Below, one piece after another: positions 3,332-64,000 of a stretch of 64,000 nt of DNA. The position numbers and the translations under genes are program-made. Position 1 is the stretch's first letter, and every line of letters starts with the position of its first letter. This DNA comes from Escherichia phage FP43. The notes under the pieces were generated by a model that did not search any database, was not told the origin of the DNA, and worked only from the letters and a program-made list of their open reading frames with translations. Location: the sequence record MN648445; one strand, given 5' to 3'.

Positions 3332-4774
3332 GTGGTAGAAATTATTTTGTCTCATCTCGTATACGACCAGGCTTATTTTTCTAAGGTCTGGCCTTATATG
3401 GATTCTGAGTATTTTGAGCGTGGACCGGCAAAAAATGTCTTTAAAATTATAAAGAGCCACGTTAACGAATATAATGCAATGCCATCTATCAATGCATTAA
3501 AGGTGGCTTTAGATAACAGTTCTTTAACTGAAGCCGAATATAAAGGAACTTCAGACCTAATTGAAAAATTGGCTGATACTCCTGAAGACCACGAATGGTT
3601 GGTTAAAGAAACTGAGAAATATGTCCAGCAAAAAGCGATGTATAATGCTACATCCAAAATCATTGAGATTCAGTCTAATGCTGAACTACCTCCAGAACAA
3701 CGTAACAAGAAAATGCCTGACGTAGGAGCTATTCCTGATATTATGCGTCAAGCACTTTCAATTTCGTTTGATAGTTATGTTGGTCATGACTGGATGGAAG
3801 ACTATGAAGCACGCTGGCTTTCTTATCTAAATAAAGCACGTAAGGTCCCGTTCAAATTAAACATTCTTAATAAAATCACCAAAGGTGGCGCAGAAACAGG
3901 TACACTGAACGTTTTAATGGCCGGTGTTAACGTTGGTAAATCTTTAGGCCTTTGTTCACTTGCTGCAGATTATCTTCAAACAGGACATAATGTTCTTTAT
4001 ATTTCCATGGAAATGGCTGAAGAAGTTTGTGCTAAGCGTATAGATGCAAACATGCTTGACGTATCACTCGATGATATCGATGATGGTAACGTATCTTATG
4101 CTGAATATAAAGCCAAGATGGAAAAATGGCGTTCAAAATCAACATTAGGACGTTTAGTAGTTAAACAGTATCCTACTGGTGGAGCTAACGCTAATACATT
4201 TCGTGCATTGCTTAATGAGTTAAAACTTAAGAAGAACTTTGTGCCATCTGTAATCATGGTTGATTACTTAGGTATTTGTGGGTCTTGTCGTATCAGAGTT
4301 TACACTGAAAATAGCTACACATTAGTTAAAGCTATCGCAGAAGAACTTCGTGCATTAGCAGTAGAATCTGAAACAGTTCTATGGACTGCAGCCCAAGTAG
4401 GACGTGCAGCATGGGATGCTTCAGACATGAACATGAGTGATATCGCAGAATCAGCAGGTTTACCAGCAACGGCAGATTTCATGTTGGCTGTAATTGAAAC
4501 CGAAGAACTTGCACAAGCTGAACAACAACTTATCAAACAAATCAAATCACGATATGGTGATAAGAATAAGTGGAATAAATTCCTGATGGGTGTACGTAAA
4601 GGTAACCAGAAATGGATTGAGATTGAGCAAGAAGGCATGAACACACCTAACACAGTAAATGAAAACGCAGGTGCTCAGATGCGTCAGGCAGAGGTGAATC
4701 GTACGGAACGCGTAGGTAAAGCCAAAGCAACACGTGCTGACCTAGATAGCTTAGCCAATGAGTTAAAATTTTAA
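3332..4774 (+). CDS. 41: gp41 replicative DNA helicase (DnaB family)
   Basis: GTG start 6 nt after AAGGAG; Walker A GVNVGKS; sequence nearly identical to T4 gp41 as I recall it; 480 aa. Confidence 0.95.
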   Translation: MVEIILSHLVYDQAYFSKVWPYMDSEYFERGPAKNVFKIIKSHVNEYNAMPSINALKVALDNSSLTEAEYKGTSDLIEKLADTPEDHEWLVKETEKYVQQKAMYNATSKIIEIQSNAELPPEQRNKKMPDVGAIPDIMRQALSISFDSYVGHDWMEDYEARWLSYLNKARKVPFKLNILNKITKGGAETGTLNVLMAGVNVGKSLGLCSLAADYLQTGHNVLYISMEMAEEVCAKRIDANMLDVSLDDIDDGNVSYAEYKAKMEKWRSKSTLGRLVVKQYPTGGANANTFRALLNELKLKKNFVPSVIMVDYLGICGSCRIRVYTENSYTLVKAIAEELRALAVESETVLWTAAQVGRAAWDASDMNMSDIAESAGLPATADFMLAVIETEELAQAEQQLIKQIKSRYGDKNKWNKFLMGVRKGNQKWIEIEQEGMNTPNTVNENAGAQMRQAEVNRTERVGKAKATRADLDSLANELKF

Positions 4775-4780
4775 TAAAAA

Positions 4781-4800
4781 GGAGACTTCGGTCTCCTTTC
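4781..4800 (+). terminator. hairpin GGAGAC-TTCG-GTCTCC followed by short T run
   Basis: perfect 6-bp stem with TTCG tetraloop directly after gene 41 stop. Confidence 0.5.
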
Positions 4801-4862
4801 GGGGTTTACATCTTCCTCTAGGCATGATATGATGTACTTACACCAACCAAGAGGAAAACATT

Positions 4863-5237: not shown

Positions 5238-5288
5238 GTTTACTTCTCCAGTAGTTGTGTTATTATAGACCTATCAACTACTGGAGAA
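5238..5288 (+). promoter_or_regulatory. early-type promoter (GTTTAC 5238-5243, TATTAT 5261-5266) embedded in 14-bp inverted repeat 5244-5257/5275-5288
   Basis: sigma70-like -35/-10 spacing; perfect inverted repeat TTCTCCAGTAGTTG/CAACTACTGGAGAA with -10 in the loop; 5 nt upstream of ORF 5293. Confidence 0.6.
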
Positions 5289-14431: not shown

Positions 14432-15741
14432 CATTTGATGATTTGACTGAAGGCCAGAAAAACGCCTTCAACGTTGTTATGAACGCTATTAAAGAAAAGA
14501 AACATCACGTAACTATTAATGGGCCTGCTGGTACAGGTAAAACAACCCTTACTAGATTCATCGTTGAAGCCCTTATTTCTTCTGGAGAATCAGGTATTAT
14601 TTTAGCAGCCCCTACACATGCTGCTAAAAAGGTTCTAAGCAAACTTGCAGGTCAAGAAGCATCGACTATTCATAGCATTCTTAAAATCAACCCAACTACA
14701 TACGAAGAAAACGTATTATTTGAACAGAAAAAGGTTCCCGACTTAGCCTTGTGTCGTGTACTGTTATTTGATGAAGCGTCAATGTGTGACCGTTCTCTGT
14801 TTAAAATAATGTTAGCTAGTATCCCTAAATGGTGCACAGTAATTGGAATCGGCGACCGATGCCAGATTCGTCCGGTAGACCCAGGCGAATCAACGGCGTA
14901 TCTAAGTCCTTTCTTCACTCACAAAGACTTCGTGCAATGCAACCTTACAGAAGTTAAACGTAGCAATGCACCAATTATTGATGTTGCGACTGATATTCGT
15001 AATGGCAAATGGATTTATGATAAAGTAGTTGATGGGCACGGTGTTCATGGATATACAGACCTTAAATCATATATGATGAACTATTTTAATGTCGTTAAAA
15101 CTCCTGAAGACCTTTTCGAAAATCGAATGATGGCATTCACAAATAAGTCAGTAGATAAGTTGAATTCAATTATTCGCCGAAAACTTCTCGAAACAGAAAA
15201 GCCATTTATTAAAGATGAAGTCATTGTTCTACAAGAGCCGTTTACCAAGACGTATAAGCTAGATGGCAAAAATATGTCTGAAATGCTTTTCAATAACGGG
15301 CAATTCGTTCGTATTCGAGATGCTGTAGAAACGTCTACATTCGTTAAAGCACGTGGTGTTTCGGGCGAATATATGATACGATACTGGAATCTTACAGTAG
15401 AAACATATGGGGATGATGAAGAATACATCCGCGAAGATATAAAGGTTATTTCTTCTGAAGAAGAGCTTTATAAATTCAATTTGTTTTTGGCTAAGACTGC
15501 AGAAACATACAAATTCTGGAATAAAGGTGGTAAAGCTCCATGGAGCGAATTCTGGGATGCTAAACGTATGTTCACTAAGGTGAAGGCACTACCAGTATCA
15601 ACCTTCCATAAGGCCCAGGGTATGTCTGTTGACACGGCCTTTGTTTATACACCGTGTATCCATTATGCTGATTCAGAATTAGCTAAACAGTTATTGTATG
15701 TCGGCACAACTCGTGGTCGTTTTGACGTCCATTTTATTTGA
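14428..15741 (+). CDS. dda: Dda DNA helicase (SF1B)
   Basis: 437 aa; Walker A GPAGTGKTT; close match to recalled T4 Dda. Confidence 0.92.
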   Translation: MTFDDLTEGQKNAFNVVMNAIKEKKHHVTINGPAGTGKTTLTRFIVEALISSGESGIILAAPTHAAKKVLSKLAGQEASTIHSILKINPTTYEENVLFEQKKVPDLALCRVLLFDEASMCDRSLFKIMLASIPKWCTVIGIGDRCQIRPVDPGESTAYLSPFFTHKDFVQCNLTEVKRSNAPIIDVATDIRNGKWIYDKVVDGHGVHGYTDLKSYMMNYFNVVKTPEDLFENRMMAFTNKSVDKLNSIIRRKLLETEKPFIKDEVIVLQEPFTKTYKLDGKNMSEMLFNNGQFVRIRDAVETSTFVKARGVSGEYMIRYWNLTVETYGDDEEYIREDIKVISSEEELYKFNLFLAKTAETYKFWNKGGKAPWSEFWDAKRMFTKVKALPVSTFHKAQGMSVDTAFVYTPCIHYADSELAKQLLYVGTTRGRFDVHFI

Positions 15742-15750
15742 GAGAAAATT

Positions 15751-16428
15751 ATGAGCACTGATGTTATTATAGATTTTGAAACATTCGGCAATACGTCAAA
15801 AGCTGCTGTTATTGACCTTGCGGTTATTGCATATAATTCGGACCCTGAAATTGTTGAATCATTCGAAGAACTTGTTCAACGAGGTAAGCGAATTAAATTT
15901 AATTTAGCTTCTCAGAAAGGGAAGCGAGTTTTCGCTAAATCCACTATGAAATGGTGGAAAGAACAATCAGCAGAAGCACGTAAAAACCTGGCCCCGTCTG
16001 AAGACGATGTCACTACGCTTGAAGGCGTTAAAATCTTTTTAGATTATTGTCGAGCTAATAAAGTTGACCAATGGAAATCACAGATGTGGTGCCGTGGTAT
16101 GAGCTTTGACTTCCCGATATTGGTCGATTTGATTCGTGACCTCTATCGTGATGAAGGTGTTCTTGAACCAGATATTGATACCGATAAATTAGAACCGGTT
16201 AAATTCTGGGCTCAACGCGATATTCGTACGGCAATCGAAGCTTACTCGTTGACACGAGGATTAAGTATGTGTCCATTACCGATGGGTACGCTAAAAGGAT
16301 TCGTTGCCCATGATAGTATTCACGATTGTGCTAAAGATATTTTGATGTTAAAATATGCTCAGCGTTATGCGCTTGGCCTTGAAGATGTCCCTGAGAATCC
16401 TGACCCGTTAAGTGTAAAACAGCGATAA
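15751..16428 (+). CDS. dexA: DexA exonuclease A (DEDD family)
   Basis: 225 aa; N-terminal DFETFG exonuclease motif; synteny after dda. Confidence 0.85.
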   Translation: MSTDVIIDFETFGNTSKAAVIDLAVIAYNSDPEIVESFEELVQRGKRIKFNLASQKGKRVFAKSTMKWWKEQSAEARKNLAPSEDDVTTLEGVKIFLDYCRANKVDQWKSQMWCRGMSFDFPILVDLIRDLYRDEGVLEPDIDTDKLEPVKFWAQRDIRTAIEAYSLTRGLSMCPLPMGTLKGFVAHDSIHDCAKDILMLKYAQRYALGLEDVPENPDPLSVKQR

Positions 16429-16433
16429 AAACA

Positions 16434-16463
16434 GTTTACAACCAAGGATGGTTGGAGTATAAT
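16434..16463 (+). promoter_or_regulatory. early-type promoter cassette with 5-bp stem (CAACC/GGTTG)
   Basis: GTTTACAACCAAGGATGGTTGGAGTATAAT; same cassette as at 16990 and 63887 with compensatory stem changes. Confidence 0.6.
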
Positions 16464-16493
16464 CTTTCTATCTTAACCAAACAGGAAAACATT

Positions 16494-16988
16494 ATGAATA
16501 TCAATACCACGGCTACTTACATCCTGAAAGATGAAAAACAAATCAACTGGTACGGTGCTTCAGTGCGAGCTTATGAAAAGTTTTGTGAAATTTTAGGTGC
16601 CACTCAAGGTAATAGTTTCACTATTGTTAACTTCATCAAACAAGTTGAAGGCCCTTGGTTATTCTTAGAAATTAAAAATTCATATGGTACAATTTCTACT
16701 ACCGCCCTTCCAAGCACCGACTTTGAACTGTTGATTGAAGAAGTAGAACCCGTTAAAGATATCTGTATTGATATGGATATCGCTTGTATGTACGGTACTC
16801 TGATTAAGCCTATTGAGCCTACTGATTTGTTGTGTAAATATGTTTCAATTCGACGTCCGTTCGCAGGTCCAGTAAATGGATGGGTAACTGACCAATGGAT
16901 TGAAGACGGTGTTGAACTTCTGAACGTTGTTCATGCAGGTGATTTTAGTGTAGTTCCACGTAGTGCTGTGGTTAATATCCTTAATTAA
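16494..16988 (+). CDS. hypothetical protein, member 1 of a tandem paralog triplet
   Basis: C-terminal W(V/I)EDG-x-(K/E)L-x-N(I/V)V-x-(A/L)G-x-F-x-VVP motif shared with the next two ORFs; ATG 16494 preferred over TTG 16452. Confidence 0.6.
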   Translation: MNINTTATYILKDEKQINWYGASVRAYEKFCEILGATQGNSFTIVNFIKQVEGPWLFLEIKNSYGTISTTALPSTDFELLIEEVEPVKDICIDMDIACMYGTLIKPIEPTDLLCKYVSIRRPFAGPVNGWVTDQWIEDGVELLNVVHAGDFSVVPRSAVVNILN

Positions 16989-16989
16989 T

Positions 16990-17020
16990 GTTGTACATCC
17001 AAGGACGGATGGAGTATAAT
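16990..17020 (+). promoter_or_regulatory. early-type promoter cassette with 5-bp stem (CATCC/GGATG)
   Basis: GTTGTACATCCAAGGACGGATGGAGTATAAT. Confidence 0.6.
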
Positions 17021-17050
17021 GAATTCAATTTAAACAAAGAGAGAGAAATT

Positions 17051-17506
17051 ATGATTACTATTGGTGAAATTAAGCGTGTATCGTCTGCATCTCGTTCTAA
17101 AGCTGCAGGTCGTCTAGTTGAAGTGGTAGGACTTCGTACTAATGGTACTGGACGTGTTAAAGAAGTTAAAGTTCGAATCATTCCTAGTTCTGGAAAAACT
17201 GAAACTCAGTACGCTTACGTAAGTCCTAAATTCTTGGAAACTCATGTGAGCGCTCATTTTGCTTCTACTGAACCTAATGTACAGTTCAAATGGGCCCTTT
17301 GCAAAGGCGTTGAATTCCGGACTGATAAAGAATTTGATTTCATCGACGAATATGGTTATCCAAACAAAACTGATATTATGTGCGGCTTCATCAGTGACCA
17401 ATGGGTTGAAGATGGTGAAAAGTTATACAATATCGTATTCTTAGGTGACTTCCGAGTTGTTAAAGAATCTGAAATCACTCGCTATGTGTCTCCTCGTAAA
17501 GCTTAA
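17051..17506 (+). CDS. hypothetical protein, paralog 2 of triplet
   Basis: N-terminal SASRSKAAGRLVEV and C-terminal DQWVEDGEKLYNIVFLGDFRVV shared with paralog 3. Confidence 0.65.
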   Translation: MITIGEIKRVSSASRSKAAGRLVEVVGLRTNGTGRVKEVKVRIIPSSGKTETQYAYVSPKFLETHVSAHFASTEPNVQFKWALCKGVEFRTDKEFDFIDEYGYPNKTDIMCGFISDQWVEDGEKLYNIVFLGDFRVVKESEITRYVSPRKA

Positions 17507-17515
17507 GGAATTATT

Positions 17516-17935
17516 ATGAATATTGTAAATCTCTCTACAGGTGATTACGTATATGTATCTGTTGCTTCTCGCTCTAAAGTTGCCGGGAAGTTGGTTGAAG
17601 TTCTTTCTGTGAGTGATCCGGTTTTTGGTCGTAACCAAGTTAAAGTTCGTGATGCTAATGGTAATATTGGCTACGTCTCAAGCCAGTTCATTGAGCCAGA
17701 AGAAAAAGCGTTCAAATGGGGACTATGCAGATCAGTTTCTGTTGAAAAAGACCATGAATTCACTATTGCTGCGGCAACTGATGGAACGCCATGGAAAACT
17801 AAGCAAATCGCCGGATTTATTAGCGACCGTTGGGTAGAAGATGGTGTTAAGCTTTATAACATCGTTTTCGCTGGTCAGTTCATGGTAGTTCCTGAATTCC
17901 AAATTAAAAAATATAGCCCAGCTGCTTTCGCATAA
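17516..17935 (+). CDS. hypothetical protein, paralog 3 of triplet
   Basis: SVASRSKVAGKLVEV and DRWVEDGVKLYNIVFAGQFMVVP. Confidence 0.65.
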   Translation: MNIVNLSTGDYVYVSVASRSKVAGKLVEVLSVSDPVFGRNQVKVRDANGNIGYVSSQFIEPEEKAFKWGLCRSVSVEKDHEFTIAAATDGTPWKTKQIAGFISDRWVEDGVKLYNIVFAGQFMVVPEFQIKKYSPAAFA

Positions 17936-17939
17936 AGTT

Positions 17940-17990
17940 GTTTACTTCTCCTCTGGTTTTGATATTATAACCATATCAACCAGAGGAGAA
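17940..17990 (+). promoter_or_regulatory. early-type promoter (GTTTAC 17940-17945, TATTAT 17963-17968) inside 13-bp inverted repeat 17946-17958/17978-17990
   Basis: perfect stem TTCTCCTCTGGTT/AACCAGAGGAGAA; loop carries the -10; right arm contains the GAGGAG RBS of ORF 17995. Confidence 0.65.
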
Positions 17991-17994
17991 TAAT

Positions 17995-18519
17995 ATGTTA
18001 GTTTACCGCGTAGAACGTAGTTTTTGTACTCAACGTGAATCATTACCAGGAATTGTTATCGAAGACGGTAAAGCCGTCAGAATTTGGGAAACCTCTTGGA
18101 ATAAAGAACCTCGCTCACCTTACGGTTGGTCTGGCACTGACAACTCTGAAGAAACATGGGAGTTCCTTGATAAGCATGGAATACTCTCAGGTAACTTCTA
18201 CCATCACGGCGACAACTATAATGTCCCTAATCGTCCTACAGTAAATGAAGACAAACTTCTTGAACAAAATATCTTAAGATACCATAGAATTGAGTACACA
18301 TTTGAATTGAGTGAAGATTGGGCTCAAGGGTTCTATTTTGGATTTGAAAGCGTTGACGCGGTTTATGCATGGTTTGATGACCAGGTGGATGTTGAACTCT
18401 TGAAAGCTAAAGGATACTACATCGCGGTCTATGAAGCACCTGATTTCATCCTCGGAAGTTGTCAATTAATGTTTAGACGTTCATTGGCAGAACAAGTTGA
18501 TTTTATTTTGCTAAAATGA
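17995..18519 (+). CDS. hypothetical protein
   Basis: 174-aa ORF. Confidence 0.6.
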   Translation: MLVYRVERSFCTQRESLPGIVIEDGKAVRIWETSWNKEPRSPYGWSGTDNSEETWEFLDKHGILSGNFYHHGDNYNVPNRPTVNEDKLLEQNILRYHRIEYTFELSEDWAQGFYFGFESVDAVYAWFDDQVDVELLKAKGYYIAVYEAPDFILGSCQLMFRRSLAEQVDFILLK

Positions 18520-18546
18520 TGTACAACAACTATGGCCTATGATACT
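18519..18546 (+). promoter_or_regulatory. early-type promoter
   Basis: TGTACAACAA and TATGATACTATAGACCTATCA cassette. Confidence 0.45.
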
Positions 18547-18576
18547 ATAGACCTATCAAAACAAGAGGAGAATATT

Positions 18577-18804
18577 ATGAAACGTCAAATCATTAAAAAC
18601 GTAACTACTGATTCAAACATCGATGAGTTTGAAGATGTTCTGTTTAATCCTGATTTAGTTGTTGTACAGAAAAACTGGACCGGATTTTTATGCTACACCG
18701 AAGTGGTTTACGTTTACGAAAAACTCGGTGATGAAATGCCTATCTACGGTATCTTCCGTGAAATCACTGAAAACGGTACAACTTATTGGAAGGAAACTTA
18801 CTAA
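18577..18804 (+). CDS. hypothetical protein
   Basis: ATG 18577 after GAGGAG; 75 aa. Confidence 0.5.
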
Positions 18805-19214
18805 TGGCTAATAAATTCCGCGTTAACTCGTGGTACCAATTTAAAGATAAACGTGCCCAAGAAGAGTTTATTAAGGACCACACCGATAATGGGATTTATG
18901 CACGACGTCTTGGCATGGAACCATTTAAAGTATTAGATGTTGACCATCTTGGTCGTCCTACTAAAATTGTGACATCTACTGGCATGGTTGGATACGCAAC
19001 AGGTGGTGATATCCTTGATGAAAACTTTATCTGGCTCTCCACGAATGAAGCAGAGTTCTTTGACGAAGTTGGAAATCCATATCAAGCGTCCGAAGAGCAA
19101 GATTCTAGTGAACTTGGTGAATTGTCTGAATTTCCGGTGATGTCGATTACTATCGAAAATAACGACCAGGCATGGTCTTTGTATCAAATGTTGAAAGCAC
19201 ATTTTAAGGAATAA
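18804..19214 (+). CDS. hypothetical protein
   Basis: TAATG overlap start; 136 aa. Confidence 0.55.
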
Positions 19215-19216
19215 TA

Positions 19217-19396
19217 ATGCCGTTATACGACTATAAATGTCAATCTGAAGATTGTGGTCATGAATATGAAAAAATTAAAAGGATTTCTGAACGAGAAAAC
19301 GATGTTTGCCCTGAATGTCATCGTCTGTCTACTCGTCGGGTTTCTGCTCCTAAACATGTGAACGGTGGTTTTTACGACTTACTTAAGAAGGGATAA
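19217..19396 (+). CDS. FmdB-like zinc-ribbon protein
   Basis: 59 aa; MPLYDYKCQSEDCGHEYE ... CPECH matches the M-P-x-Y-x-Y-x-C-x-x-C-G ... C-P-x-C pattern. Confidence 0.55.
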   Translation: MPLYDYKCQSEDCGHEYEKIKRISERENDVCPECHRLSTRRVSAPKHVNGGFYDLLKKG

Positions 19397-19398
19397 TT

Positions 19399-19824
19399 AT
19401 GGCTTTTAAAGGTTTTGAAGTTGGTAAGAAATATCATATTATCAAAGGTCAAGAAGATAATTTCTTGAGAATTCTTAATACGACTGGTAAACGTCTTAAT
19501 ACTAATCTGCATACTACTTTATTGTCCAAAGATTTTATTGTGGAAGAGATGATTGGTTACGGTGTTTCGGTTATTGCTGTAGAAGCCGTAGGCGATTATG
19601 GCCGAACTATTCATAGTATGCAAGGTGATATTCTGCTTTATGGTGCAGAATTTAAATTCTTTGAAGAAGTTCAGGAACCAGATACAGCTGTCGATTTCAA
19701 AAAAGGCTCTATAGAATTTGTTGATGGTTCGGTGATCGTATCAGGTGATGTGGTCATTACAGTTAAAAGTGAACAAGGGCGTTTGGCTGCAATTGATGCA
19801 CTTCAGAAAATTAAATTTAAATAA
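19399..19824 (+). CDS. hypothetical protein
   Basis: 141-aa ORF followed by terminator. Confidence 0.6.
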   Translation: MAFKGFEVGKKYHIIKGQEDNFLRILNTTGKRLNTNLHTTLLSKDFIVEEMIGYGVSVIAVEAVGDYGRTIHSMQGDILLYGAEFKFFEEVQEPDTAVDFKKGSIEFVDGSVIVSGDVVITVKSEQGRLAAIDALQKIKFK

Positions 19825-34630: not shown

Positions 34631-37600
34631 TTATGCTAAACGAACGATATAGTTAAAAGCAACGTTTTTAACAGTGTTTTCTGTATTTCCTGTGGCATTT
34701 ACAGTTATTGTATGGCCATGGGAACCAATTGCAACAGTATGAGAATGAGCACCAATACCCACCGAATGGGTATGAGCACCAATACCTACCGTATGAGCAT
34801 GGTTACCCGTAGAGCTAGTAGTTCCTGACCAACTATGGGTGTGGGCACCGTCATTTGATGTTTTACCGACCTTAGTTGCTAAAGTCGAACCAGTGATACC
34901 TGAGTTAATTTTAGCATATGAGTTTGCACCTATCGTAGTAACCCCGTCTCTAAACAAATCGTCTGCCCATGCAGCAGTGACCTGTGGACCTGAACGCGCG
35001 TGTTGGTGAGCTCCTGCGGAACTAGTATTACCACTCACTGTATGGTTATGGTTACCAGTGGTATTACTGGTCTTAGTACCATAATCAAAGCTTGAAGTCG
35101 TTTTGCTACCGTAATCAAAACTAGAAGTGGTCTTAGTACCCAAATCTGTGTTTGATGCACTTGCACTATGGCTATGTGACTTAACACCGTCTGCTTCTGT
35201 ACTTAATACAGCGCGCCCAGATGGTTTACCCTTGATAGTTTGACCACGCATATCAGGCAGAGCGCCAGAAGGATACACCGCAGCTAACTTAGGATACAAG
35301 CCAGTATCAAATGTTTGGCCTTCCATTATGGCATAACCTTCAGGAGGTGTATCGGTAGGCCAAGGAATCGGAGCACCAATTGGGTAACTCGAGACAATAT
35401 CCGTTTTAAGGTTATTTATTGTGGTATTCAAGTTAGCAAAGTTGCCAGAACCACCAGTAATATTACCATCAGTACCGAATTGAGCATTACCAACTTTTAA
35501 TGGTTTAGTAATATCGACAGAATCAGAGTTTAATGCAATACCATGTGAATATGTGTAGCTGTGCATACGAACGACGTTGCCGCCATCTCCAATACCTAAA
35601 TACCATTTCGGAACATCTGCTTTACGTCCTTGAATGAAGTTAGAAGACTCTTGTGTTGGAGCATTTATTCTAATAGCATCTGATGCCATATTTACTGTTA
35701 TGCGTTGACCAGCCGTAGTTCCAGCCGCTTCTACTTTAAATCTACCGCCGCCGATATCTACATCATGATCCATGGAAACTTTACCAGTACTTAATGTAAT
35801 ATAGAACGGACGTAAATTAGAAATACCACCTGATTCACCAACATTCTGTGGAGTTGGAATAATATAAAGCTTATCTTCAGAACGACGGAAAATAGCCCCG
35901 TATTCAGCATCGTAAATACGGAAAGCATCAGCAGTCCCGCCAATTTTAACCTGTCCAGTAATTGAGGCACCACCTTGAACAAACAATCCATTATTCATTG
36001 TAACGTTGCCAACTAGAGTGCTTAATCCGTTAACTCTAAGACTTCCGTCGGTTATTAAGCTTCCTCTAGCATTAACCTGTCCATTGAACTGAGTTACAAC
36101 AGGGCCTGTAGTTTCAGAACCGGTCGGAGCTACGCGTTGAGAATAGAAATAATAACCTTGGCCATCAGAAACCTCAAATACGGTTTCTCGAGCTTTATCA
36201 CCAGTAGCATTAAATGAGTTACCCCATGCTTTCACGGTCACATAACTTTTGTTCTGACCTGCACGAGTACCGCCTTCCCAAAGGATTTGTTTGGTGCCAT
36301 CAATACCTGAAGCCGCTTTAAAAACTAGAGAAGCATTAGTTCCATCACCATTAAAATATAATCCATTATTAAGTTTTAACGTTTGAACAGAAGCGATGGT
36401 ACCATCAGCACGCAAATTTAACGAATTTGAACCAGTTTTAATATCTAAAATGCCAGGCTCAACAAGAAGCCCATCACCCATACTAACGGACATACGACCA
36501 GTGCCACGGAAATAGTGATACATCTTGGCATTGCTGCTATAACCAATATGAGTCTGACCGTCACCGTTATTATTACCATCAACATCGGTACGCGCAGTAA
36601 ACATTGCTTGGTTGTTATTTGGGTAATCCCAAGTAGAACCAGAATCTCGACTATAACCAACCATCAATTTTTTAGTACTGTTAATACCGTTATTAAGAAT
36701 AGTGCCGGCAGAAATACCATTCGAAACTAAATCGATAACCCCGTCACGAACCCATTTAATACCAGTATCATTGTCACCAATTGCAATACCTTTACCAAAC
36801 GAAACCAATGGATAACGTCCTTGGTCACCAACATCAGCAAGACCTATACCTATCGAATTAGCAACAGACATACGCCCATCTGTGGTATAAGACCATTGAT
36901 AAACTTCAGCATTACGTCCCGTCCAATACGAAATATTCTGTGGTTTACCTGAACGAGCATCAGCAACTTCATGGAAAATAGCAGAAGAAACATGTCCGCG
37001 GAATTTACGAAGGTAGTTTATACCATTAGTATCCAAATCTGTTTCGGTTGGAGTATAGTGCCAAGTCGGTAATGAAACTAAATCATATGCAGTATCAATA
37101 TTAGTGTCCCAAGATTTAGTGCTCACATTGATATTTTTGGTAATAACTTTAGGACCAATTAAAGAACCAGCTTTAGTTTCAATATTACTTTGAGTAACTA
37201 AATATCCATTAGATACTAATAAACTTCCGGAATCAACTTGAAAATTACCGTTTCGATTAAAAGTCCAGTATTTTGAAGTCCCGGTTTCATCAATATAATG
37301 GAATTTAAAACTACCTTCGTTTACTAATGTACCAGCAGAAAAAGTTCCATCTTTATAGCGTTGTTTAATCAGTGGATGGTATTCTGAAACAGAAGTAGTT
37401 GAACTTAAATCTGTAAAGATAGGGGCTTTATTCGAATGTTGGTTAGCCCAAGCGCCATTTCCAGTGGTTTTAGGTAAAAATTCAATGTATTTTCCTGCAT
37501 AAACAAACTGATTTCCATTGAGATTATACGTGCCGTTTTGTAAATAATCGCCAGTTTGAGTTACATTACCGTTAATATCCCCACCCTTAGCAAAGCCTAG

Positions 37601-39619: not shown

Positions 39620-42600
39620 TTATTCAATCCACTCAAATTTAACAGATTTATTCACAGGGTCTGGAATAACGCGGACATTACCAATCCTTAAGAAATCCCT
39701 TATTGTCAAGTTTCCGATTGTTGCATTATCAGAAGGTAAAGCACCAATATCAGAAGGTTGAGGAGGGTTTCCACCATCAAATACCTGAACAAAACTTGAC
39801 CAAGAATTTTTAGTTTTCTGCCATGTACGTGTCCAACGGGTTGTACGTGCCTCTGGAGTTGTTGGATAAGTAATCCAATCTTGGTAAAGCGAATCAAGTG
39901 TATTACCAAACTGAGTCAATGTACCAGGAGATTTAACTTCTTCGCCACGTTCTAAGTATGGAAGCCCAGTCACTTCATTAGTTTTTTCAACCATTTTAAA
40001 ATAACCCGGGAACTGGTTATAAGTGGCTGAATCATTAATATCGATTGACCAGAATCCTACGGTATCAGATGTTGGCGCGCGGGTATATAAATCAGATGCT
40101 TTAGTACCCTGAGAACGAATTCTCGAGTTAACAGTTAAACCACCTGAATTTATAGTAGCACCTTTGGCAATGATTAAGCCTTCACCAATCGTTACTTGGC
40201 CAGATGCATTATTAATAGCCAAAGGACGTAATCCATTAAATCCACCGGTCTGATCACCGGATGCAGTAAGCATAAAATAGGTATTAGCAGCATCATTACG
40301 AATAAAGAATCCGTAATTACCACTAATTGCTCTGAATGCGTTTGCACTATAGGTTATAAATTCACCCTGTGCTGTCACCGAACGTCCAAATGTTGCCGCA
40401 CCATTAGCATTCAATGTTCCGGATGCATTAACATTAATCGGCCGAACTGTACCGTTGATGCTGAAAGTAATATTACCAAGGTTATCCCGTTGTGAATAAA
40501 AGTGGTTAGATGTTTCATCACCAACTTCAAATATCGTAGCACGAGATGTATCAGAACCGCCGGCGAATTGGTTACCCCATACACGGATATTCATCGCCTG
40601 AGCAGGGTTGTTTCCAGTTTGTGGACCTTTTTCAAATATTAAGCGAGTTGAAGCACCTGTATTAGAAATAGTTAATGTACTATTAGCAGATACCGAACCA
40701 CCAAACGTAGCAGTACTAGATGATACAAGAGGGGCACTCAGATTCGTTTGTTGGGTTAAGGTTAGTGAACCATTAACCGTCTGCGCAATGTCCCTACGAA
40801 TGAACTGAGATGAATCTAGGCCATCTAATAAATTTGCATCAGCAGCTTTAGCTTTCAATGGCAAATAGTTAGCAAGTACACGGTTTAATTCATATGGAGA
40901 TATAGCATAGCTATTTTTTTCATACGATTCTAAAGGTTGTGTTGAACCAACTGTATCATTACCAACAAATGTAATAGAACCAGATGAAGTTTTAACGAAT
41001 CCGCGAATTGCTGTAGTAGCAGCCCATGTTGGTTCATTCTGGACAATCCATTTTAAATTCTTAGGAGATACAGCAGTATTAGCAGAAGTTCCTGTTACAG
41101 TTTCAGCCTGAGTAGCAACCTTAATTACGCCTTCAGACGTTTCAGTGGACTTAGTCCCTAAAAGCTTTTTAGGAGTAATAAGAACATCATCTAAAGTTCC
41201 TGCATTAGATTCTGCCTGGGTCGCTACGCGAAGTGTACCACGTTGTGTTTCATTTGCTTTATAAATATCAAGAGTATAATGGTTCCACAAGGTTCCTTCT
41301 TCAATAAGTCCGGAATCAGAATTAACACTGGTACGGTCAGAAGAATCAAAATGAGTTTTAATTTTCAGTGGAGTCGAGATACGAGTATCATCAGTTCCAG
41401 TATCAAATTCAACTTGCGTAGCAATTTCGGCTATGCCGGATAATCCTTCCGTAGCTTTCCTATCATTTAACGTCTTAGGCGTTACTGCACGTGTATAATC
41501 AGTCCCAGCATTAGTTTCTGCTTGCGTAGCAATTTCAATTAAACCAATACGTCCATCAGTAGAAGTTTTCTTATGTAGTGTTTCAGGAGTTACTACAGCG
41601 TGAGAATAACCTGCTTGTGATTGACCAGCAATTACTTCACTATCAACAGCTAAAATTACTGCACCTTGTTGAGCATAAGTTGCTTTATATTGGTCAAGGG
41701 CTTTAGGAGAAATAGTTAAATTATTTACGGTTTTATTATAAACGTTAGTGCCTGCAGCCCCACGAGTTTCAGCAGGAGTAGCAGAAGTAGTTGATACATA
41801 TTTAACTATACCAGACAGTGTTTCAGAACCCTGACGTGCCTGTAATTTCTTAGGTGTAATAATCGTTGTGTCATCAAGACCAGCATCGGTTTCAACCTGA
41901 GTAGCAATTTCAGCAAGACCACGACGAGTTTCAGTTGCTGTACGCTCATTTAATTTTTTAGGCGTAACAATAGTATCGTCCACAAATGCTGCTGTGGAAT
42001 TCTGGTTAACTTGTGCTGTTGTAGCAATTTTAGCGATACCACGTCGAGCTTCAGTTGCTGTACGATTTGCCAACGTTTCAGGAGTAATAGCCACTTCTTT
42101 AGCTGGAGTATTCTCTAAATCAACATTTGCTTGCGCTTGAGTAGCAAGAGCAATAACACCTAAACGAGCTCGTGTAGCATCAGTTCCAGCATCGACACGT
42201 TCTACGGTTGGGACGTTTTGTTGAACAACCCAATAACGTGTACCAGCAACGGTGTCTTCGATATACGCTAATTCTAATACAGGAACATATGAAGTAGTGC
42301 CATTGAATTCTAGTTCAGTAACAGAGACCCATTGAGCATCAGGTGGATATTCAGAACGTTTAGGGAACTGAAGCAATGCAACAGTGGAAGCAATTGTATC
42401 ACCTTCGGCAGCTTTAATTTTTACTGTTTGGCCTTTACGCATGTAGTTCATTGAAATTTTAACAGTGTCACCACTCAAAATTCCGGTAGGCAGCGTAAGA
42501 TTAATAGTTCCGGTTGTAGCGTTATTTGTGCCAAAGATAAGAACTTCTTCATTTGGACGAATATTTGAATCCGCACGGATAATACGAAGACGCGATTTCT

Positions 42601-46775: not shown

Positions 46776-46782
46776 TAAATTG

Positions 46783-46803
46783 GGAGACTTCGGTCTCCCT
46801 TTT
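46783..46803 (+). terminator. rho-independent terminator
   Basis: GGGAGAC-TTCG-GTCTCCC followed by TTTT. Confidence 0.75.
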
Positions 46804-46831
46804 GGGCATCTGTAACTTACCTAAAAAAGTT

Positions 46832-46860
46832 GTTTACTTCCTCCAAGGACATGATACTAT
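46832..46860 (+). promoter_or_regulatory. early-type promoter
   Basis: GTTTACTTCC and GATACTATAGACCTATCA. Confidence 0.5.
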
Positions 46861-54060: not shown

Positions 54061-54089
54061 TTTACACACCACAAGGATTGTGGTATAAT
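54060..54089 (+). promoter_or_regulatory. early-type promoter with short stem (CCACAA/TTGTGG)
   Basis: GTTTAC 54060-54065 and TATAAT 54084-54089. Confidence 0.55.
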
Positions 54090-55242: not shown

Positions 55243-55272
55243 GTTTACAAACACCAAGGAAGGTGTTACTAT
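55243..55272 (+). promoter_or_regulatory. early-type promoter with short stem (AACACC/GGTGTT)
   Basis: GTTTAC 55243-55248 and TACTAT 55267-55272. Confidence 0.5.
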
Positions 55273-62303: not shown

Positions 62304-62325
62304 GGGAGACTTCGGTCTCCCTTTT
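62304..62325 (+). terminator. rho-independent terminator
   Basis: GGGAGAC-TTCG-GTCTCCC followed by TTTT. Confidence 0.75.
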
Positions 62326-62357
62326 GTGCGTTTAGGGCAGAAAAAGTTTAAAAAGAT

Positions 62358-63237: not shown

Positions 63238-63272
63238 TTTAACTGGGAGCTTCGGCTCCTACTGAGGAAATT

Positions 63273-63887
63273 ATGTTTAAAGTTAATACTTTTTATAAAA
63301 TGAATTTTAAAAATGGGGATATTACTCCACGCCTTAAAAACATGTTCTCATATGACCTTATCGAGCCTTTTGAAGTTTTAGAAGTTACTGATGCCGGCTC
63401 AGTTTGTGAAATTAGAACTTCTGAAGGTAAAATTTATCAGGCAGGTGTCGGTAAATTCAGTAATTGTTTTACTTTAATATTCTCGACTGATTTAGATGAG
63501 CATTTTATTGAATGTCCTAACCCTAAGGTCTATGAAGTTCCACATCAAGAAATTAAGAAAAATGGACCGCACGAATATACGAAGGTTGAAACTCCTCACG
63601 GCGTGATGTGGCGTCATAACTCTCCTTTTGGAAGTAAAGGAACATTTGCTCAACTGGCTAAGCCCTACGACGATGAAAAATATGTAGTAGTCCTTTTATC
63701 TGAACAGGGTACTCAAGACCGTGGATGTCAACGAAGTGGTTTACTAAGTGAACTCGAAGCTCATAACCGAGCACGTGAATTCGTTGAGAAAAATCCTGGT
63801 TCTGAAGCTCTAGTCATGAAAGCAATTACTCAATATATCACTGCTCAACCTGTTGTTCATCCGGTAGAAATTAATTTCATTAAGTAG
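63273..63887 (+). CDS. hypothetical protein
   Basis: 204-aa ORF. Confidence 0.6.
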   Translation: MFKVNTFYKMNFKNGDITPRLKNMFSYDLIEPFEVLEVTDAGSVCEIRTSEGKIYQAGVGKFSNCFTLIFSTDLDEHFIECPNPKVYEVPHQEIKKNGPHEYTKVETPHGVMWRHNSPFGSKGTFAQLAKPYDDEKYVVVLLSEQGTQDRGCQRSGLLSELEAHNRAREFVEKNPGSEALVMKAITQYITAQPVVHPVEINFIK

Positions 63888-63917
63888 TTTACATCCAAGG
63901 ACGGATTAGAGTATAAT
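63887..63917 (+). promoter_or_regulatory. early-type promoter cassette (copy of the 16990 cassette with a degraded stem)
   Basis: GTTTACATCCAAGGACGGATTAGAGTATAAT. Confidence 0.55.
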
Positions 63918-64000
63918 GATTTCTTTACTAAGTGGAAAAAAATATGAAATTTTTAATAGCACAAACAGTCCAATTAAAAGGTGTTGGAATTCCTGGGGTG

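Follow-up and report, generated by a model that had tools for sequence, protein, structure and literature searches.

Three copies of a short repeat before early genes

The DNA considered here is a stretch of 64,000 nucleotides (nt) from Escherichia phage FP43 (sequence record MN648445), referred to in its entirety as the window. It contains three copies of a repeat of about 30 base pairs (bp), termed cassettes A, B and C (Table 1), all on the + strand, which is the direction of early-gene transcription in the window. To the left of cassette A lie dda and dexA (15751-16428); rightward the order is cassette A, a motB.1 homologue, cassette B, two motB-like genes, a different promoter, a motB.2 homologue, cef and goF. 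A preliminary description, made from the letters of the window, had placed copies at 16434, 16990 and 63887, two of them flanking the first of three paralogous open reading frames (ORFs) and the third preceding the final ORF. Direct reading of the sequence confirmed these positions, with the final ORF being a homologue of gene 30.5, and it also confirmed the stems given for the three copies (CAACC/GGTTG, CATCC/GGATG and a degraded CATCC/GGATT).

All three copies share a layout of a TTTACA or TGTACA hexamer, a spacer of 17-18 nt and a TATAAT hexamer. Cassette A has its -35 hexamer, TTTACA, at 16435-16440 and its -10 hexamer at 16458-16463, separated by 17 nt, with an inverted repeat made up of CAACC (16439-16443), the loop AAGGAT and GGTTG (16450-16454). 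Cassette B has TGTACA at 16992-16997, a 17-nt spacer, the -10 hexamer at 17015-17020 and the inverted repeat CATCC (16996-17000), loop AAGGAC, GGATG (17007-17011). In cassette C the hexamers TTTACA (63888-63893) and TATAAT (63912-63917) are 18 nt apart and the stem is degraded to CATCC...GGATTAG; its first base is the final base of the stop codon of a 204-amino-acid (aa) ORF, and the same degraded form is present in two related records (L002 and L007). The consensus proposed at the outset needs a small correction for B, whose first hexamer is TGTACA rather than TTTACA.

A consensus search allowing up to 3 mismatches recovered copies A and B, where 0.00 matches were expected from 100 dinucleotide shuffles; the pattern GTTTAC-N16-19-TATAAT gave 4 matches against 0.06 expected and recovered copy C, whose spacer is 1 nt longer. 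The core from -35 to -10 (29 nt) is 86-100% identical among sites. In comparisons between sites the repeated unit stops sharply at the limits of this core; outside it, identity is mostly 0.2-0.4 in the upstream flank (0.61 for one pair) and 0.27-0.6 in the 5' untranslated region. The cores of A and B are 86% identical, and over 64 nt, as far as the start codons, the two are 73% identical. The pair 16437/16994 was listed as repeat family D11 when the window was compared with itself, a check that the preliminary description had proposed, and nearly all of the largest direct-repeat families in this comparison consist of promoter-like motifs of this general kind. It could be argued that the repeats are a chance likeness of AT-rich intergenic sequences, for which nothing speaks beyond their short length. 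The probability of this is negligible, as the shuffled sequences yielded no match at all and hundreds of phage genomes have the same 27-30-mer between genes at defined positions.

Table 1. Positions of the cassettes and of the genes around them in the window
Feature	Position	Strand	Sequence	Remarks
Cassette A	16434..16463	+	GTTTACAACCAAGGATGGTTGGAGTATAAT	
motB.1-like gene (paralog 1)	16494..16988	+		164 aa; module between cassettes A and B
Cassette B	16990..17020	+	GTTGTACATCCAAGGACGGATGGAGTATAAT	
motB-like gene (paralog 2)	17051..17506	+		151 aa; first gene predicted to be served by cassette B
Second motB-like gene (paralog 3)	17516..17935	+		139 aa; 43% identical to paralog 2
motB.2 homologue	17995-18519			3' of motB genes
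204-aa ORF	63273..63887	+		with cassette C, at the position of T4/JS98 gene 30.6
Cassette C	63887..63917	+	GTTTACATCCAAGGACGGATTAGAGTATAAT	
Gene 30.5 homologue (start)	63944..64000	+		predicted to be served by cassette C; T4/JS98 homology resumes exactly at the ATG

The cassettes as predicted early promoters

The three repeats are predicted sigma-70 early promoters of the T4 type, and form one sub-family. All three copies conform to the T4 early-promoter pattern of a GTTTAC(A/T) -35, 16-18 nt of spacer and a TATAAT-like -10. Against TTGACA-N17-TATAAT, cassette A matches at 11/12 positions and cassette B at 10/12, and these are the best promoter-like sites in the region. The upstream flanks are A/T-rich and UP-like (GATAAAAACAG for A, CTTAATTAATG for B and TTCATTAAGTA for C). 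The 5' edge of every copy is at the stop codon of the upstream gene; the distance from the end of the -10 hexamer to the ATG is 30, 30 and 26 nt respectively, with a Shine-Dalgarno sequence before the ATG. The genes 3' of the cassettes correspond by homology to motB.1, motB and 30.5, which are early genes in T4, and are on the early-gene strand.

Over region 15500-19500 the window shows 99.4% identity to Escherichia phage vB_EcoM_SA79RD and 96-98% identity to numerous other genomes of Mosigvirus (RB69-like, Tevenvirinae); by this likeness it is part of a Mosigvirus genome, that of an RB69-like T-even phage. The SA79RD record annotates copies A and C as sigma-70-like ‘promoter’. In the same record a motB-like coding sequence (1989-2507, equivalent to window 16988-17506) starts at an ATG overlapping the upstream stop and spans cassette B; this is probably a mis-called start, and the motB-like gene more likely begins at the ATG that the PhAPEC2 record uses (window 17051).

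Predicted promoters of the same general type number 24 on the + strand of the window, and the distinguishing mark of A, B and C among them is the shared spacer with its weak 5-bp inverted repeat. In T4 and RB69 the early consensus comprises GTTTAC at -36 to -31, an A-rich UP-like region and a TATAAT-like -10 (PMC1524935; T4 early promoters are also described by Hinton 2010, PMC2988021), and 57 early promoters were predicted in RB69, many of them 5' of novel ORFs (Nolan et al. 2006, PMC1524935). The cassettes resemble these promoters in the GTTTAC -35, the A-rich UP-like region, the TATAAT-type -10 and the position 5' of early genes. They differ from the published descriptions, in which the spacer is weakly conserved (PMC2988021, PMC1524935), in that here the spacer is near-identical at several non-orthologous promoters, and in that an extended -10 (TGn) is absent from all three copies.

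A mini-ORF or alternative start within the cassette (ATG at 16448 or 17009) was considered and rejected, the AAGGA being too near the ATG to act as a Shine-Dalgarno sequence. Other early-promoter sub-families on the + strand have strong inverted repeats on both sides of the -10 and fold with z-scores of -2 to -4.7 (promoters at 5239, 17941, 27146, 27658, 27919, 56650, 58776 and 62803).

Distribution of the family

In 266 phage records, 771 places match a 32-mer of the family. Mosigviruses typically have 4-5 places per genome, and Dhakaviruses (JS98, JS10, Bp7 and others) have one, 5' of nrdC.4. The family is thus larger than the three copies described initially, and reaches a maximum of 5 places per genome in complete relatives. 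Two further Mosigvirus sites, D and E, are in the nrdC region, 1,020 bp apart and flanking a 319-aa ORF; the 29-nt core of A is identical to the core of site E in related genomes, where the downstream gene is unrelated.

At the position of the promoter between motB.1 and motB, T4 has GTTTACAAACTCTTGGGACCAGAGTATAAT and JS98 has GTTTACTTTATCGAGAGCCATGTTATAAT; the spacers of both are unrelated to the family, and neither phage has a promoter directly 5' of motB.1. The spacer is therefore common to non-orthologous promoters within a genome and not to orthologous ones between genera, which points to copying or homogenisation of the cassette; on this comparison the spacer would be shared because it was copied from locus to locus, and not because it was selected for.

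Gene-content breakpoints at the cassettes

A synthetic junction was constructed by joining window 16340-16463 (the end of dexA with the cassette) to 17021-17140 (the start of paralog 2). Most Mosigviruses match it in two pieces separated by around 800 bp; a single 243-nt match at 92-95% identity was obtained in at least 17 Mosigvirus genomes, among the best 60 records. At this locus the single-piece genomes have dexA, one hybrid cassette and motB-like genes, with no motB.1 homologue; motB.1-specific sequence was found in 147 phage records.

The hybrid cassettes fall into three classes. In the first (VIPECOMC06, AV115, ST2, JK45 and PTK) an A-type stem is joined to B-type downstream sequence, with the crossover 3' of the stem in TGGAGTATAAT. 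In the second (phi25-307, NHEP36 and RPN187) the A-type upstream flank and -35 are joined to a B-type stem, the crossover being between the -35 and the stem. In the third (JK42) an A-type 5' arm is joined to a B-type 3' arm, with the crossover in the loop. Three crossover positions within the shared 30 bp argue for homology-driven exchange, and for more than one event. As to the records themselves, ST2 (OM982647) is filed under Guernseyvirinae/Kagunavirus and JK45 (MK962757) under Tequatrovirus; both genomes are T-even, of the Mosigvirus type, and these taxonomy lines look wrong.

For the D/E pair, which is outside the window, a single-cassette junction was found in 21/153 records, and the single cassette of p000v at this place has a D-type left side and an E-type right side. 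The preliminary description had made its reading depend on cassette copies coinciding with gene-content breakpoints in comparisons of related phages, and this coincidence is borne out at both A/B and D/E. Since the synteny of motB.1 and motB is ancestral, the single-cassette genomes are most simply explained as deletions, and the direction would be that of loss rather than insertion.

The motB.1/motB paralogy and the cassettes

Paralog 1 is the orthologue of motB.1, with 86% identity to MotB.1 of JS98 in the C-terminal 56 residues and 37% to that of T4; paralogs 2 and 3 are copies of motB. Amino-acid identity among the three is 43-55%, and paralog 1 shares only around 30-36 C-terminal residues with the others; a common C-terminal domain of MotB and MotB.1 has been described, as has the presence of two motB genes and one motB.1 in RB69 (PMC7827196). 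In the T4 reference (NC_000866, 632-805, reverse) motB.1 (119 aa) ends early, with the conserved C-terminal EDGVELLNVVHAGEYSVVPRSAVVAILN encoded just 3' of the annotated stop, which suggests a frameshift in the T4 gene when it is set against those of JS98 and the Mosigviruses.

In principle, unequal crossing-over at direct repeats may yield duplications as well as deletions. The three ORFs are genuine paralogs, and the first of them has a cassette on either side; on such grounds the cassettes could have mediated the tandem duplication that gave the array at 16494-17935, as first suggested. This proposal was not supported; it is largely refuted and must be regarded as very improbable. In T4 and JS98 motB.1 adjoins motB without this cassette family, with an unrelated spacer in the intervening promoter and without a promoter belonging to motB.1. 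Neither a cassette nor any promoter separates paralogs 2 and 3, and the promoter 3' of paralog 3 is a different one. Furthermore, the likeness of paralog 1 to the others is confined to its C-terminal end, and the same cassette stands at unrelated loci. By these comparisons the motB.1/motB paralogy predates the cassettes.

Slightly less credible still is the idea that the likeness of A and B is a passive relic, the promoter having been duplicated with its gene and having played no part in later rearrangements. The extension of A-B identity to the start codons would fit such an origin. However, the coding sequences are far more diverged than the promoter cores, the orthologous promoter spacer of T4 and JS98 is wholly different, the core of A recurs unchanged at site E before an unrelated nrdC-region gene, and natural recombinants exist with three crossover positions inside the cassette.

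Site C and other exchanged modules

The cassette sites between dexA and motB, in the 30.x genes and in the nrdC.x genes are all variable among T4, JS98 and the Mosigviruses, as is characteristic of hyperplastic regions. At site C the 204-aa ORF and the cassette together replace gene 30.6 of T4/JS98, with cassette C at the right edge of the replacing segment. The Mosigvirus phiC120 (3776-4286) has 30.6 and is without the 204-aa ORF, cassette C and 30.5. The interval between 30.7 and 30.4 is therefore seen with alternative contents: the ORF, cassette C and 30.5 in this phage, 30.6 in phiC120, and 30.6 with 30.5 in T4/JS98. Site C agrees only in part with the expectation that indel endpoints lie within cassettes (see Discussion).

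A further rearrangement concerns motB.2, which with its own promoter is between dexA and motB.1 in T4/JS98 and 3' of the motB genes here (17940-18519). The motB.2 promoter has the form TTTACT...TATTAT with a hairpin stem TCTCCTCTGGTT/AACCAGAGGAGA. Judged from gene order, the shift is a relocation of a module whose edges are at promoters.

The inverted repeat in the spacer

RNA folding of the 30-mers gave -6.9, -8.6 and -3.5 kcal/mol for A, B and C (z = -2.3, -3.0 and -1.1). The stem is inside the spacer and overlaps the last bases of the -35; it is 5-6 bp long in A and B and 4 bp in C. Of the 24 early promoters, 10 fold with z < -2; the strongest are those bracketing the -10, and the A/B/C family is among the weaker ones. 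Two promoters outside the family, at 54061-54089 and 55244-55272, have other spacer stems, ACCACAA-gga-TTGTGGT and AACACC-aaggaa-GGTGTT, around an AAGGA-type loop, and another at 46833, also outside the family, holds CCAAGGAC in its spacer. The spacers of early promoters seem to be enriched in AAGGA.

In a scan of IMG/VR the search pattern left the variable positions of the 5' arm and the entire 3' arm free. Among T4-like sequences it gave 17 instances in which the spacer is 17 nt long, all of them either CAACC/GGTTG or CATCC/GGATG, as well as copies of the degraded C form.

It is conceivable that the conserved spacer is itself a selected signal, consisting of a hairpin with an AAGGA loop and a GGAG; such a signal could coexist with the promoter role. 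It might be a site of processing or attenuation in read-through RNA, a protein-binding site or a site of targeted recombination. The two stem variants differ by a paired change of A:T to T:A, all 17 of the unbiased IMG/VR matches have perfect stems, and different stems surround an AAGGA-type loop at 54061 and 55244. GGAG is also the target of RegB, for which the strong-site consensus is GGAGRAYARAA (PMC3014915). Against this, viable phages carry mismatched chimeric stems (CAACC/GGATG in JK42, CATCC/GGTTG at site A of JM10), and strict complementarity of the stem was rejected as proof of selection on this ground. Copy C is stably degraded and the hairpin is thermodynamically marginal. Only two stem haplotypes are known, and the pairing can therefore be explained by a single event followed by copying. 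The GGAGUAUAAU of the cassette fits the RegB consensus only in part and copy C is without GGAG, so a RegB site is retained as speculation only. Finally, the crossover points are scattered over the cassette, as expected of homology-driven rather than site-specific exchange. A selected structural role of the spacer stem is thus possible but unlikely. If it were true, the cassettes would be actively targeted exchange points; the spacer might be the target of a phage-encoded recombination or RNA-processing factor, or a read-through attenuator, and both the paired stem variants and the differing stems at 54061 and 55244 would reflect selection for structure.

Other features of the window

A terminator-like hairpin with a UUCG-type loop recurs at 4780-4805, 46782-46807 and 62304-62329 (GGGAGACTTCGGTCTCCC followed by a T-run), and a related sequence, gggagcttcggctcc, is found 3' of gene 30.7 (about 63243-63258). 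At 41075-42087 and 35068-35155 the comparison of the window with itself also listed diverged repeats at 108-nt spacings and multiples of this (families D2 and D7) and three 30-nt tandem units (family D19), which are probably within structural genes on the - strand. A permissive Rfam scan of 16000-18200 gave a single match, a sub-threshold one to Y_RNA at 16643-16733, inside the motB.1-like coding sequence; at 26.6 bits, against a gathering score of 38, and E = 0.013 it was judged to be due to chance.

Discussion

The repeats are most readily understood, with a probability of roughly 0.8, as early promoters of the promoter early stem-loop (PeSL) type, which provide portable homology where accessory genes are lost or exchanged. 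Each cassette would drive the genes downstream of it, read by the host sigma-70 RNA polymerase: A the motB.1-like gene, B the two motB-like genes and C the 30.5 homologue with the genes following it. Since the same stretch of around 30 bp recurs in direct orientation before unrelated accessory genes, the homologous recombination of the phage could cross over within the repeat. Between neighbouring copies this would lead to loss of the enclosed gene, and the reverse reaction to insertion of a gene; in either case the product would retain one functional hybrid promoter, because the exchange falls inside the portable promoter itself.

The PeSLs were first defined in RB49 and phi1, as a strong sigma-70-like early promoter with AT-rich upstream sequence, a stem-loop, and a Shine-Dalgarno sequence and ATG (Arbiol et al. 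2010, PMC2839356). Five classes were distinguished by the position of the stem-loop, the commonest having it between the -35 and -10 or over the -10. The elements cluster in hyperplastic regions and border the indels by which RB49 and phi1 differ; neighbouring PeSLs were shown to recombine with formation of mini-circles, and crossover points were located in the stretch from the -10 to the ATG or Shine-Dalgarno sequence (PMC2839356). The cassettes described here likewise have an early promoter, an AT-rich flank and a Shine-Dalgarno sequence with ATG. As the near-identical 17-nt spacer holds the inverted repeat, they would belong to the class with the stem-loop between -35 and -10; a repeated early promoter is here combined with a sequence capable of forming a stem-loop, although the stem is weak. 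Copies stand before accessory genes, and at A/B and D/E the indels are flanked by two cassettes and end within them, leaving one hybrid.

There are also differences from the RB49/phi1 elements. The genus is Mosigvirus and not Krischvirus, and the -35 is TTTACA in place of TTGACA. The stem is a weak 5-bp CAWCC/GGWTG, whereas theirs is a G-run/C-run shown to terminate transcription. The present sub-family has only around five copies per genome. The concept was later extended to T4/PST, with the consensus TTTACW-N17-TAYWAT, and to KVP40/nt-1, and degraded copies were described (Comeau, Arbiol, Krisch 2014, PMC4122927). The cassettes share with the T4/PST elements this consensus and the association with hyperplastic insertions, deletions and replacements, and the degraded copies may be compared with cassette C; they differ in that the T4/PST stems (AGNA/TCNT) are drawn just 5' of the promoter (PMC4122927) and the stem here is inside the spacer. 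RB69-like phages were outside the analysis of Comeau et al. (2014, PMC4122927), and no paper in the literature that was searched names PeSLs together with RB69 or Mosigvirus.

Several observations weigh against this interpretation. Promoter activity in vivo is a prediction from sequence. Unbroken identity between A and B extends over only around 7-11 bp, a short stretch for homologous recombination to be efficient. No partner copy lies near cassette C, and in comparison with phiC120 the breakpoints fall at 63280 and where 30.4 begins, so that cassette C is contained in the variable module and does not form its edge. The hairpin is weak, and that of cassette A is outside the minimum-energy fold in an 80-nt context. 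No terminator-like site was called at any of the three cassettes and their hairpins are without a U-run; an intrinsic terminator at the cassettes was consequently rejected, and the terminator half of the PeSL definition is doubtful here.

On the question of short homologies, patches of homology of tens of bp or fewer suffice for T4-type recombination to remove the DNA between them; for deletions of this kind in T4, Singer et al. 1982 and Mosig et al. 1998 are cited in PMC2839356. The present case differs from such deletions at short direct repeats in T4 in that the repeats are predicted promoters, the product would stay expressed and the event recurs in natural populations. The involvement of many genomes and of several independent crossover points argues for homology-driven and not site-specific exchange.

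The mechanism was already proposed, and partly demonstrated, in 2010, and no new question is opened here. Reading the cassettes as PeSL-type promoters would extend the PeSL concept from the pairs RB49/phi1, T4/PST and KVP40/nt-1 to the RB69-like genus. It also draws attention to annotation errors in which a coding sequence has been stretched across a promoter. For the Mosigviruses it would explain the differences in motB.1 and nrdC-region content among genomes, and it would provide a clean illustration from natural populations of how T4-like phages may gain and lose accessory genes while leaving expression undisturbed.

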